Shown here one piece after another: positions 4,864-12,040 of a stretch of DNA of 12,040 nt. Both the position numbers and the translations under genes were made by a program. The stretch lies in IMG/VR virus record IMGVR_UViG_2751185968_000006; one strand, given 5' to 3'. The notes under the pieces are model-generated. The model had not been told where the DNA came from. It saw nothing but the letters and a program-made list of their open reading frames with translations, and searched no databases. Each line of letters begins with the position of its first letter. Position 1 is the first letter of the stretch. The stretch comes from a virus. Taxonomy: Duplodnaviria; Heunggongvirae; Uroviricota; Caudoviricetes.

Positions 4864-5167
4864 TTATCGGGCCAGCGGCTGAACGGATACGCCAGAACCC
4901 GCAAAGGCGGCGCATTTTTTCGCATCGGTGTCGACGCTCTCAGGCCAGTTAACGGCGGCAATATTGAATATCCCCGTCTTGTAACACTGTGCTGATTTCT
5001 GCTTTGACGTGTCCACGAGGTACGAAGTCAGATAAACAGCCTTGCCAGATTCCTGACCATCCCACGGCTTAAACTCGCCATTGTCCACCAGCATCAGCGG
5101 CAAAATGTACCAGTGTCGTTGATACCTGCTGACTGCCTGCAAATAACTCAATATATGGAGTGTCCAT
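4864..5167 (-). CDS. Head decoration protein, lambda gpD-like; possibly frameshifted
   Basis: The C-terminal frame (supplied ORF 4864-5151) reads PLMLVD...WDGQ...YKTGIF...WPESVD...KKCAAFAGSG, paralleling lambda gpD PLMLD...WDG...YKSGTF...WPEA...KKRTAFAG (from memory). The only ATG with a good RBS (GGGGGA) is at 5167 in another frame, which stops at 5069. Confidence 0.55.
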
Positions 5168-5178
5168 ATAATCCCCCG

Positions 5179-6604: not shown

Positions 6605-6642
6605 AGCCCGATAAGAACCCTCTGACCTTATCGGGCTTTTTT
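6605..6642 (+). terminator. Terminator-like hairpin with T6 tail on the plus strand
   Basis: Stem AGCCCGATAAG (6605-6615) / CTTATCGGGCT (6627-6637), followed by TTTTTT (6637-6642). No obvious plus-strand gene lies upstream. Confidence 0.4.
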
Positions 6643-7734: not shown

Positions 7735-7982
7735 AATTCCACCTCTCCGGTTTTAACGTTGATGGTTGTTACCTGTTCCGCTTCGGCAATCTCCCGTTCT
7801 GTCAGCGTGGCAAAGTTTGCCGCCGCCGTGGTCATGAATGCGCTTATCAGGTCGGGATGTTCCTTCGCGTATCCTTCCCGCGTGTGGCGGTCTATCGTTC
7901 TGATTGCCACCTTTAAGGTGTGCTCAGTCATGTCTAACGCTTTATATTTTGGCTCTGTTCTGTCTCTGCGTTTTTGGGTCAT
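7731..7982 (-). CDS. Hypothetical protein (83 aa from ATG 7982; the supplied ORF extends to a GTG at 8012)
   Basis: ORF translationally coupled to the SSB-like gene. The upstream extension overlaps the iteron array, so the ATG at 7982 is the more likely start. Confidence 0.45.
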   Translation of the reverse strand: MTQKRRDRTEPKYKALDMTEHTLKVAIRTIDRHTREGYAKEHPDLISAFMTTAAANFATLTEREIAEAEQVTTINVKTGEVEL

Positions 7983-7993
7983 TTCTCGCAACC

Positions 7994-8181
7994 TCTCACT
8001 TTTTCGCCTCACTTTTTCAAGCGTCTCACTTCGTCGCAGTTGGGATTTTCGGTTTTTCTATGTGTGTGTTTTATAAGTATTTTTTTACCCCTCACTTTTG
8101 AGGATGTATACAGGTCGAAAAGTGAGGGAGAGCGGGCTAATTTTGGCCCTCTTTCTATCCCCCTCGCTTTTGCTCCTCACT
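7994..8181. repeat. Iteron array and AT-rich region: putative satellite origin of replication, immediately downstream of the replication gene
   Basis: Seven copies of CCTCACTTTT-like motifs: CTCACT at 7995-8000, 8008-8013, 8025-8030, 8091-8096 and 8176-8181, an inverted copy at 8118-8127, and a variant CTCGCT at 8163-8168. An AT-rich stretch lies at 8041-8087; copies 4 and 5 form 12-bp inverted arms 16 bp apart. Confidence 0.5.
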
Positions 8182-8182
8182 T

Positions 8183-8530
8183 TTATAGCGGCGCTACATC
8201 ATCCCCATCGATACTAATAACCCCATCTTTTTCCAGCTTGTACAGCCAGCGCCGGAAGTTTTTCATTTCATACCCCAGCTTTTTCATGTCATCACGTAAC
8301 AGCGGGATCGTGCACTTGTCGCCGTTCTGTGTGCGTGAACGGATGCACCCCCATAGCGCGGTATGGTTTTCCGTCTTGTTCCCTGCCTCCTCGATGCGCT
8401 CCAGTTCAACAGGAGGGCGCGGATCATCCACCACCACCAGCGACGTGATTAATTCACCGTCAGCGTCGGTAAAAAGCTCCACCACGCGTAAGTCATATGC
8501 GGCTTCTTTGAGTTCCTCCGCGTCCTTCAT
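8183..8530 (-). CDS. Replication protein, C-terminal fragment (second piece of a frameshifted primase/helicase-type gene)
   Basis: This frame stays open upstream of the annotated ATG to about 8638 and there encodes DESARGSSAFRASLDAEY, the expected continuation after the HHSGKD motif of RecA-like replication ATPases. Confidence 0.6.
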   Translation of the reverse strand: MKDAEELKEAAYDLRVVELFTDADGELITSLVVVDDPRPPVELERIEEAGNKTENHTALWGCIRSRTQNGDKCTIPLLRDDMKKLGYEMKNFRRWLYKLEKDGVISIDGDDVAPL

Positions 8531-9582
8531 TTTGGTGCATGAGATAACCAGCGCTTTGCTTCCTGCGTCCTCCCTGCGTATCCGGTATTCAGCATCCAGC
8601 GAAGCACGAAATGCACTGGAACCGCGCGCGCTTTCGTCTCATCCTTGCCGGAATGGTGAACCACCAGCACCGTGGCCCCTGTGCGTCGTTTCAGTTCGTC
8701 ACAACCACGGATAAACGCCCCCATATCACGGGAATCATTTTCATCATTCCCACCAAAGCAACGCGCCAGCGTATCCAGAATAATCATGCGTACAGGTTTA
8801 CCCGTTTCCCGCTCCACCTGACGGGCAGCGATAACCATTTCATCAACATCAAGCGGGGCAGCCGGAAAGATGGGGCGGTTTACCAGATACAGATTTTTCA
8901 CCTGCTCATCGTGCACAACCTCCCAGGCTTTTACACGACGCGGAACGCCGATACCGCCTTCACCAACCACATAGAGAACCGCACCATGTGCAACCCTGCG
9001 GCCTCCCCACTGGCGACCAGTGGCAACATGGCACGCCCACGATCCGGCAAGGAATGATTTATAGGACCCGCTAGCCCCGTATATGCTGCATAGCGATACC
9101 GCCGGAATAATCCCCTTAACCACGTAATCCAGTTGCGTGTCGTATCCGGTAGATCCAACGCTCATCGGTAGCGTGGTTTTTCGCTGGTGGTTTTTTTCTT
9201 CCACCGGCTCTTTCCCGCGCACCCGTTCCAGGTATTCGCGCCAGTTCTCCCGCATATGGCTGTGCATCCCTTCGGGGTAATAATTCGCATCAGTTACACC
9301 CGCCGCCGCCAGCTTGTGCGCAATGGCATTAATATTTGATGGCCTGATGTGGCCTGCCTTGTACAGCCGGACACAATAGCGCCCCTCGTCGATGATTCTC
9401 AGGTCTGCCAGTTCATCCAGTTGATCATCAGCCAGCACAACGGGAGGCACATTATCGCCAGCCAGTCGCCCGTCCTGTTCCTGCCACTGTTTTGCATGTG
9501 CCCAGGCATCACTACCCGCAAAAATAATGACTTCGGTCATCTTGTCGTAAGGCTGTTTTTTTAAGTTCGGTGCGCTTTTCAT
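8527..9582 (-). CDS. Primase/helicase-type replication protein (RepA-like P-loop ATPase), N-terminal fragment ending prematurely after a frameshift
   Basis: Walker A GASGSYKS, Walker B MIILDTLARCF, then VLVVHHSGKDE typical of RepA-like helicases. The frame then reads TKARAVPVHF... to a stop at 8527, just downstream of a (CG)4 tract at 8623-8631. Confidence 0.75.
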   Translation of the reverse strand: MKSAPNLKKQPYDKMTEVIIFAGSDAWAHAKQWQEQDGRLAGDNVPPVVLADDQLDELADLRIIDEGRYCVRLYKAGHIRPSNINAIAHKLAAAGVTDANYYPEGMHSHMRENWREYLERVRGKEPVEEKNHQRKTTLPMSVGSTGYDTQLDYVVKGIIPAVSLCSIYGASGSYKSFLAGSWACHVATGRQWGGRRVAHGAVLYVVGEGGIGVPRRVKAWEVVHDEQVKNLYLVNRPIFPAAPLDVDEMVIAARQVERETGKPVRMIILDTLARCFGGNDENDSRDMGAFIRGCDELKRRTGATVLVVHHSGKDETKARAVPVHFVLRWMLNTGYAGRTQEAKRWLSHAPK

Positions 9583-9878
9583 TTCTTGCCCCTGAATCCG
9601 TTAATCATGGTTTTCAGCTTCTGGATGTTTGCCCGTGCCCTGGCGTTGCTGGTGGGCACGTTATGCGGCGCGGTCTGTACCAGAGAAAAATCACGCCGGA
9701 ACTGATAAACAGGCATCACGCAATCATATTCGTAACCTTCACGGCGGTAGGTTACACGCCGTTCTTCCACGCCCTTAATCATTACCGTGCCGCCGTACTG
9801 GTCGCGGTAAATATCACCGCGCGTAAATTTAGGGTGAGTGTTGCCACTGGCAGTTAAGCCAGAATATTTAAGTTTCAT
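9579..9878 (-). CDS. Hypothetical protein (99 aa), coupled to the replication gene
   Basis: ORF in the tiled minus-strand operon; its stop overlaps the replication gene start (ATGA). Overlapping plus-strand ORFs have junk-like composition. Confidence 0.45.
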   Translation of the reverse strand: MKLKYSGLTASGNTHPKFTRGDIYRDQYGGTVMIKGVEERRVTYRREGYEYDCVMPVYQFRRDFSLVQTAPHNVPTSNARARANIQKLKTMINGFRGKK

Positions 9879-9883
9879 TATTT

Positions 9884-10117
9884 TTATTCTCCGGTGTGCT
9901 GTTCTTTATATCTGTCGTGCAATAGATCTATTTCTTGCAGTTCCATTATTACAGGCTCAAGAAGCGTTATTAATGCCGTGGCAATTCTTGATTTTTGTTT
10001 GTCGCGTTCATTGTCGCCAAGTGTTTCAAGCCATATGCGCAATATTTCCAGCATGTTTTCACTGTGAGAAAGTGCAAGAAATGCGCGGTCTATTGTTTCG
10101 TGGTAAATATCACGCAT
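9884..10117 (-). CDS. Hypothetical protein (77 aa)
   Basis: ORF in the tiled minus-strand operon with protein-like, charged composition; no family recognised. Confidence 0.45.
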   Translation of the reverse strand: MRDIYHETIDRAFLALSHSENMLEILRIWLETLGDNERDKQKSRIATALITLLEPVIMELQEIDLLHDRYKEQHTGE

Positions 10118-10343
10118 GGCTTACATCCTCAGGAAATTTTCTTCTGTAACGCGCCTCTGCCACATATTCCGCATAATCGGCGGCGATATTCAGTACATCA
10201 AGCCCCGTTGATTTATATTCTCTCGTGGAAAGTAAGAAAAAAGCCGCTCTAATAAGTTCTGGCATTGACGAAAGCGCATCAGCCGCATCATCAGGAACGC
10301 CGGGAAATTCCTGTTTCAGGGAATTAAAACGATCATCACGCAT
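10110..10343 (-). CDS. Hypothetical protein (77 aa from ATG 10343; the supplied ORF extends to 10391)
   Basis: ATG at 10343 is preceded by a G7 Shine-Dalgarno run and overlaps the upstream stop codon (ATGCGTGA). Confidence 0.45.
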   Translation of the reverse strand: MRDDRFNSLKQEFPGVPDDAADALSSMPELIRAAFFLLSTREYKSTGLDVLNIAADYAEYVAEARYRRKFPEDVSHA

Positions 10344-10557
10344 AACCCCCCCCATTTTCACAATCAGCAACAAGAATATTTTTAGCGTCATTCAGCGACC
10401 GCGTTGCGATGTATCGGATACATTCCAGGGCGAACTGTGTCCGGTCTTTCTGTTCTTCTCCCTGCGCAAGCTCTGCAGTGCATTCAATATCAATAAGCGC
10501 GTGCATCAGCGTAGTGAGTGCGGCGGCTGCTGCGTTCGGTGTGGTTTTATTGTGCAT
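10336..10557 (-). CDS. Hypothetical protein (73 aa from ATG 10557; the supplied ORF extends to 10599)
   Basis: ATG at 10557 is preceded by AGGGGGAAA. No family recognised. Confidence 0.45.
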   Translation of the reverse strand: MHNKTTPNAAAAALTTLMHALIDIECTAELAQGEEQKDRTQFALECIRYIATRSLNDAKNILVADCENGGGYA

Positions 10558-11764: not shown

Positions 11765-12040
11765 GGTAATGACTCCAACTTACTGATAGTGTTTTATGTT
11801 CAGATAATGCCCGATGACCTTGTCATGCAGCTCCACCGATTTTGAGAACGACAGTGACTTCCGTCCCAGCCTTGCCAGATGTTGTCTCAGATTCAGATTA
11901 TGTCGCTCAATGCGCTGAGTGTAACGCTTGCTGATAACGTGCAGCTTTCCCTTCAGGCGTGATTCATACAGCGGCCAGCCATCCGTCATCCATACCACGA
12001 CCTCAAAGGCCGACAGCAGGCTCAGAAGACGCTCCAGTGT
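11765..12040 (-). mobile_element. IS1-family insertion sequence, partial; right terminal repeat at 11765, continues beyond the right window edge
   Basis: GGTAATGACTCCAACTTACTGATAGTGTTTTATGTTCAGATAATGCCCGATGAC from 11765 matches the IS1 right terminal repeat as recalled. The insB frame follows on the minus strand. Confidence 0.9.
11780..12040 (-). CDS. insB: IS1 InsB transposase, C-terminal part (gene runs off the window edge)
   Basis: Minus-strand translation [86 protein letters not shown] matches the InsB C-terminus as recalled; it is in frame to the window edge. Confidence 0.85.

Follow-up and report, generated by a model that had tools for sequence, protein, structure and literature searches.

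A RepA-family helicase gene of a PICI-type phage satellite, broken by a one-base frameshift at a GC-rich tract

A replication gene that falls into two overlapping reading frames may be two genes, one broken gene, a gene under a slippage-prone switch, or an intact gene that was misread. The 12,040-nucleotide stretch of viral DNA analysed here (hereafter the window) raises this question on its minus strand. We found that positions 9582-8183 hold one RepA-family (AAA_25) helicase gene, which is distributed over two frames. A single replication gene broken by a frameshift at a GC-rich tract had already been proposed in the first-pass annotation, and this proposal holds, with the gene placed on the minus strand. 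The locus consists of the following parts:

8183..9582, minus strand: repA, the RepA-family AAA_25 RecA-like replication helicase/initiator gene of a PICI-type satellite; 1400 nt
9582..8527, minus strand: upstream ORF of 351 aa, with an ATG start and a TGA stop at 8529-8527
8638-8183, minus strand: second frame, carrying native residues 319-466, with its stop at 8185-8183
8183..8530, minus strand: 115-aa ORF, the product of the gene caller, starting at native Met352
8622..8631: GC-rich tract of 10 nt, CCGCGCGCGC on the plus strand and GCGCGCGCGG on the coding strand

The translated upstream ORF contains a Walker A motif (GASGSYKS), a Walker B motif (MIILD) and the sequence HHSGKDE; both Walker motifs and the histidine motif (HHSGK) are invariant across an alignment of 24 sequences. 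The ORF matches Pfam AAA_25 over residues 148-315 with 149.1 bits (cutoff 27), the same result as for an intact relative. Residues 1-317 (8632-9582) are native and the last 34 are out of frame, which agrees, down to the coordinates, with the earlier description of an N-terminal ORF that passes these three motifs, enters a non-native run and stops at 8527. Translation also bears out that the downstream frame is open back to 8638 and supplies the expected ARGSSAF continuation. This second frame reads ARGSSAFRASLDAEY and contains ARGSSAF..., the remainder of the RecA-like core and a C-terminal winged-helix-like domain, with 95% identity to residues 317-466 of the intact 466-aa cluster representative. 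The gene measures 1400 nt in the window, against 1401 nt (466 aa) for intact relatives. The window copy loses its frame after K317, and GARGSS is readable only in the other frame, which leaves this motif and the distal core out of frame with the ATPase motifs.

The exact nature of the lesion emerges from comparison with intact genes. WP_000833618.1, a 466-aa 'helicase RepA family protein' and the closest annotated relative, reads GAG ACG AAA GGC GCG CGC GGT TCC (E T K G A R G S) at the junction, where the natural product of 466 aa has K-G-A-R-G-S-S; in the alignment to this relative, the window junction is GAGACGAAA-GCGCGCGCGGTTCC. On the coding strand, the intact gene has AAAGGCGCGCGCGGTTCC and the window AAAGCGCGCGCGGTTCC, with one G of the GG doublet 5' of (CG)4 gone. 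On the plus strand, positions 8622-8631 read CCGCGCGCGC in the window and align to CCGCGCGCGCC in the closest intact gene, and the missing base is a C next to 8631. The tract of the relatives is 11 nt long, GGCGCGCGCGG, and encodes Gly-Ala-Arg-Gly; the window is one base short next to 8631, and its (CG)4 run is as long as that of the closest intact gene.

The first-pass annotation had rightly located CGCGCGCGC at 8623-8631, but had explained the break by an extra CG unit, gained through dinucleotide slippage. We rejected this cause upon direct alignment to intact relatives: intact alleles also have (CG)4, and the lesion is a loss of 1 nt in the flanking GG. The proposed removal of one CG unit does arithmetically restore a frame of 465 codons, but it would delete the Gly of GARG, which is kept by all full-motif homologues. 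The 8-nt GC run is unremarkable in itself; GCGCGCGC occurs once in the window, and at least one copy appeared in 67/200 dinucleotide-preserving shuffles. We regard the lesion as accidental and non-programmed. In this record the missing G breaks the gene after Lys317 and takes GARGSS, the remaining part of the core and the predicted DNA-binding domain out of the reading frame, so that the gene as written cannot produce a working helicase.

The two frames might still form a functional arrangement, either through programmed -1 frameshifting or as a split helicase of 351 aa plus 115 aa. At 8527-8530 (ATGA), the stop codon of the upstream ORF shares bases with the start codon at native Met352, and this would allow termination-reinitiation. 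However, the 112-nt overlap of the frames contains neither an X XXY YYZ heptamer nor a homopolymer of 6 nt or more, homologues encode one continuous protein, and native residues 318-351, many of which are invariant in the 24-sequence alignment, and which include GARGSS, are missing from both products. Programmed frameshifting was rejected for want of a slippery heptamer and of a conserved split, and a functional two-ORF layout of either kind seems barely conceivable to us. Homologous islands do not hold two separate genes with the same boundary, an arrangement that the first-pass annotation had named as evidence against a broken gene; their homologues are one gene. An annotation of the locus should show a single frameshifted repA in place of two genes.

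What the intact gene would do can be read from its family and domains. A single PHROG family, phrog_2850, spans the whole intact protein (positions 1-465 of 465, 887 bits), whose first ~130 residues are similar to part of phage primases (phrog_864). The only sequence match to a solved structure is 1g8y (RSF1010 RepA), over query residues 150-321 with E = 0.005. A full-length AF2 model was mediocre (pLDDT 65, low over residues 311-394) and was used for the domain layout only; its Foldseek matches were weak and of the RecA/RadA/Rad51 core type. AF2 prediction of the last 115 aa reached a pLDDT of ~90 over the last ~60-65 residues, which fold as helix-helix-helix-strand-strand in the model, and the Foldseek neighbours of this C-terminal model were winged-helix domains at weak E-values of 0.08-0.6. 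The product combines a primase-related N-terminal domain (~1-130), a RecA-like RepA/AAA_25 core and a C-terminal winged-helix-like domain. It shares the RecA-like core, Walker A, Walker B and an HH(S/A)xK motif with RSF1010 RepA (PDB 1G8Y/1NLF), with marginal sequence similarity and a length of 466 aa versus 279 aa; unlike RSF1010 RepA, the satellite RepA has the additional primase-related and winged-helix-like domains at its two ends. A trans-acting arginine after the histidine motif has been described for the RepA helicase family (PMC8965321), and the Arg of GARGSS is a candidate for this arginine finger here.

The gene is embedded in a replication module, comprising rep, an adjacent putative origin and SSB; the module is present in the window record, with its rep gene frameshifted:

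7995..8184, plus strand: putative origin, with CTCACTTTT iterons around an AT-rich stretch, beginning at the repA stop codon
7324..7734, minus strand: SSB gene of the replication module
9579..9878, minus strand: DUF4222 gene, whose stop overlaps the repA start by 4 nt

The 4-nt overlap suggests that DUF4222 and repA belong to the same operon. The iterons comprise five exact CTCACTTTT copies (one of them inverted) and one copy with 1 mismatch. Iteron matches number 7 in the window versus 2.5 expected, and 6 lie within the 190-nt stretch 7995-8184, where the cluster also encloses an 11-nt inverted repeat (8089-8099 / 8118-8128). Judged by this sequence pattern, the cluster is likely the origin of the satellite. 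An Rfam search of the window found nothing. In the model described for SaPI/PICI Rep and P4 alpha, Rep binds iterons and the hexameric helicase opens the origin. By analogy, RepA would bind the CTCACTTTT iterons just 3' of its gene via the winged helix, and the predicted hexameric helicase would then unwind and open the origin. The likeness to the SaPI/PICI pri-rep and P4 alpha systems extends to a putative AlpA-like regulator, to SSB, to homologues of capsid and decoration genes, to a terS-like gene, to iterons beside the gene and, in sibling copies, to an integrase next to a tRNA. The differences are that the link between RepA and the iterons is drawn here from sequence, and that the window copy is frameshifted.

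Two other parts of the island are also altered:

4864..5168, minus strand: head-decoration (lambda D-like) gene, disrupted by a deletion of 32 nt with its junction at 5088-5100
11765..12040, strand not assigned: IS1 end with the inverted repeat GGTAATGACTCCAACTTACTGATAG..., at the point where siblings continue into the integrase gene

Siblings in E. coli carry the island between yejO and tRNA-Pro/yejM, or between phoQ and roxA, with the gene order int, HTH, Icd-like, DUF4222, repA, SSB, PerC, capsid E-like, decoration D-like and terS. The integrase-yejO and integrase-phoQ spans of intact siblings contain no annotated tail, lysis, terL, portal or head-tail connector genes, and the window ORFs that were tested gave no Pfam matches to terL, portal or head-tail connector. 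The window does contain Phage_cap_E, HDPD and a terS-like gene (phrog_57). A 68-aa ORF at 11453-11659 matches Phage_AlpA with 17.6 bits, below the cutoff of 21, and its equivalent is an annotated HTH regulator in relatives. We first took the island for a capsid-forming PICI and dropped this assignment upon the absence of terL, portal and connector genes, given that terL, portal and head-tail adaptor/connector genes are the criteria for cfPICIs (PMC10085698); PICIs and cfPICIs are reported to share the integrase-regulator-primase/replicase half (PMC10085698). The island is a PICI-type phage satellite at the yejO / tRNA-Pro site, and fits an enterobacterial PICI rather than a cfPICI. It resembles enterobacterial PICIs in the ~12 kb size of intact siblings and in their int, putative AlpA-type HTH gene, rep, capsid-morphogenesis gene and terS homologue, and differs in that the window island is bounded by IS1, with the integrase outside the view. 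There is no integrase within the window; two relatives, L033 and L146, continue at the 11765 point into an integrase next to tRNA-Pro, and the integrase of the window copy may lie beyond IS1 or may have been lost.

Two IS1 ends in direct orientation (1-243 and 11765-12040) bracket yejO and the island, and the left one removes about the first 230 nt of yejO. This abundance of IS1 suggests a Shigella-like or otherwise IS-rich E. coli background. In the decoration gene, 32 nt were deleted between 13-nt direct repeats, CCGCTGATGCTGG, with a frameshift after ~22 codons. The deletion is present in the window, L002/L143, L144 and L145, and absent from L033, L003 and L001. Separately, we noted a 563-aa E. 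coli protein (P0001) in which repA and the decoration gene are fused; the fusion presumably arose from an internal deletion of the island.

The remnant of the decoration gene provided a marker for the lineage of the window. A look-up of this 95-aa remnant returned 74 blocks, and 24 contigs of these were read; the lineage with the remnant is common. The nearest record, L002 (GCA_000815685.1), shows 0 substitutions over 11.8 kb and two 1-nt differences, namely T7 versus T6 in the window (6637-6642) and a 9-nt tract, GGCGCGCGG, versus 10 nt in the window. The L002 tract corresponds to the intact tract minus one GC unit ((GC)3, -2) and likewise breaks the frame. The window and L002 have in common the 32-nt deletion in the decoration gene, IS1 at both ends and a derived 3-nt deletion at 2703, in a short variable stretch (2703-2708) close to the island end, immediately beyond the yejO terminator; there, the window and L002 read GGGATTCAC, L033 and L144 read GGGATTTTTCAC, and L145 reads GGGCAC. 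The T6 of the window is the T-run of a terminator-like hairpin, which is T7 in 14/14 relatives carrying the site, and this T7->T6 contraction is the only other private difference of the window besides the tract.

Two further members of the lineage whose DNA was compared have an intact reading frame. L144 (GCA_002968145.1) and L145 (Logan ERR5888546) differ from the window by 0 and 1 substitutions over 11.1 kb; they carry the 32-nt deletion of the lineage together with an intact 466-aa repA, the 11-nt tract and T7. L144 is also found in an IS1/narP context, and its further differences from the window are homopolymer lengths only (G6->G5, C8->C7), which makes length calls the main difference among the lineage records. 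L033 and L003 possess the repA haplotype of the window (0 mismatches in 1400 nt) with an intact tract. Since L144, L145, L033 and L003 are all intact, so was the ancestral state of the lineage. In exact look-ups, the 351-aa product had no record in the gene-position collection, and the 115-aa product occurred in one contig only, that of L002. The window junction had no exact match in IMG/VR, and no cluster representative among the sequences inspected in the protein search had the frameshifted tail. The window allele is private to its record, and L002 has another private allele of its own at this tract.

Two off-frame lengths (10 and 9 nt) at one tract in two sister assemblies, the shorter being a clean loss of one GC unit, are what a slippage-prone contingency locus would produce, in which phase variation of the GC tract would start and stop replication of the satellite. 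The propensity of alternating GC to slip or to adopt non-B DNA structures also speaks for such a switch. Known contingency loci have a short repeat inside a coding region, as here, and a change in its length shifts the frame. Such a locus should vary in length among relatives, yet the tract-length comparison among homologous islands that the first-pass annotation had called for revealed a constant 11 nt, with the window and L002 as the only exceptions. In a scan with a gapped pattern that allowed 6-14 nt between the flanks, the tract was 11 nt long in 43/43 IMG/VR contigs and 17/17 metagenome contigs, one of them with a synonymous C>T. Of 5,426 complete E. coli genomes, 476 had the repA segment; the intact 72-nt junction was exact in 427 of these, and the -1 (window), -2 and +2 alleles had 0 exact matches among the 476. 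The non-exact junctions had the same length in 7/7 sampled records, i.e. they carried substitutions. A neighbouring poly-G run varies between 7 and 10 copies in the same loci, and the data could thus have detected variation of the repA tract.

Conservation of the tract resides in the protein instead of the DNA. HHSGKDxx[KR]GARGSS is identical in 78/79 homologues from other species (50-72% amino-acid identity); the exception, L064 from Xenorhabdus budapestensis, has an in-frame deletion of 4 codons (ESKG) just before ARGSS. The codons for GARG vary synonymously (GGC GCA AGA GG, GGT GCT CGT GG, GGG GCG CGG GG and others), so that the tract is not conserved as DNA among the 79 homologues. It is a by-product of encoding a near-invariant motif with GC-rich codons. 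A scan of GTDB species representatives with the intact protein found no Escherichia copy. Unlike contingency loci, the repA tract shows no length polymorphism and no conservation as DNA, it has only 4 units, no more than chance would provide (67/200 shuffles), and the change in the window is not that of a repeat unit. The on/off switch suggested in the first-pass annotation is not supported by these comparisons and strikes us as very improbable; together, a switch and a programmed frameshift deserve at most a marginal share of belief. An equally small probability goes to a related reading, in which GG(CG)4GG is a true indel hot spot that was hit twice independently (-1 and -2) in sister strains as a recurrent off-switch; such an off-switch of satellite replication would possibly be reversible, once the island is domesticated. 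The repA tract should not be listed as a candidate for phase variation.

We are left with a miscalled base and a real mutation. The most likely origin of the 10-nt call, to which we give an even chance on the basis of the sequence comparisons, is an assembly miscall: the tract is GC-rich and self-complementary, and an assembly prone to indels may have introduced a one-base error of the homopolymer type there. The true tract would in that case be the intact 11 nt, as in the same-lineage assemblies, or the 9-nt (GC)3 of the sister L002. A miscall is favoured by the privacy of the allele, for which the 351-aa product, IMG/VR and the 476 E. coli genomes all lack a match, and by the intact state of the same-lineage assemblies L144 and L145 and of L033 and L003, which have the same repA haplotype. 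It is also favoured by the kind of differences that set the window apart, which are indels only: T7->T6 and GG->G, both contractions of mononucleotide runs, with 0 substitutions in 11.8 kb. L144, too, is set apart by homopolymer lengths only. Moreover, the disagreement between 10 nt in the window and 9 nt in L002 suggests that the reads were ambiguous here. Against a miscall, the missing base lies in a 2-nt run and not in a long homopolymer. Likewise, no length error at the tract was seen in ~530 other assemblies, with the non-exact E. coli records checked by the 7-record sample, which argues that the tract is not generally error-prone in sequencing.

A real and recent accidental deletion of 1 nt, caused by replication slippage in the GG doublet, has a probability that we place somewhat short of even. 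It would make repA an ordinary pseudogene in a decaying island, and the satellite would no longer replicate autonomously. Decay is evident elsewhere, with lesions common to independent assemblies (IS1 at the integrase region and the deletion in the decoration gene) and with yejO likewise truncated by IS1; an island already damaged by IS1 and the 32-nt deletion would experience no selection against a real frameshift. Other repA copies are frameshifted at other places, for example L025, in which G5->G4 affects a different site (7845-7903). Furthermore, the sister L002, which shares the derived 3-nt deletion, is out of frame at the very same tract, so that a real lesion in their common ancestor is plausible. 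However, the lesions differ in size (-1 in the window, -2 in L002), and a second event or an error is needed anyway; the other lineage members are intact, and the exact 351-aa product has no match elsewhere. The second private change of the window is also a 1-nt contraction of a run, with 0 substitutions, a pattern that is more typical of assembly error. Both the inactivating mutation and the sequencing error put forward in the first-pass annotation consequently retain substantial weight, but neither operates by gain of a CG unit.

If the lesion is real, it adds one more mark of decay to an IS1-bounded satellite remnant. The base calls at 8631/8632 and 6637-6642 bear on any inference of a replication-dead satellite from this record. 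The finding has little weight beyond annotation; genes of this family, islands of this type, frameshift pseudogenes and assembly indels are all already known.

The length-variable tract of this island is a different one, a run at 10346-10353 that is poly-C on the plus strand and poly-G on the coding minus strand, and whose length varies among related islands. Among 35 loci, including Illumina metagenome contigs, we counted C7 in 11, C8 in 16 (including the window), C9 in 6 and C10 in 2. C7 and C10 yield one 154-aa gene (11012-11476 in L001), and C8 and C9 yield two ORFs, which in the window (C8) span about 10336-10557 and 10110-10391. The PHROGs families follow this division, with phrog_2512 for the fused form and phrog_5146 and phrog_24341 for the halves, and in E. 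coli F2_407_2_2 the PGAP annotation of the gene reads 'frameshifted'. Loci with identical flanks mostly have the same run length, which indicates variation between haplotypes rather than rapid switching.
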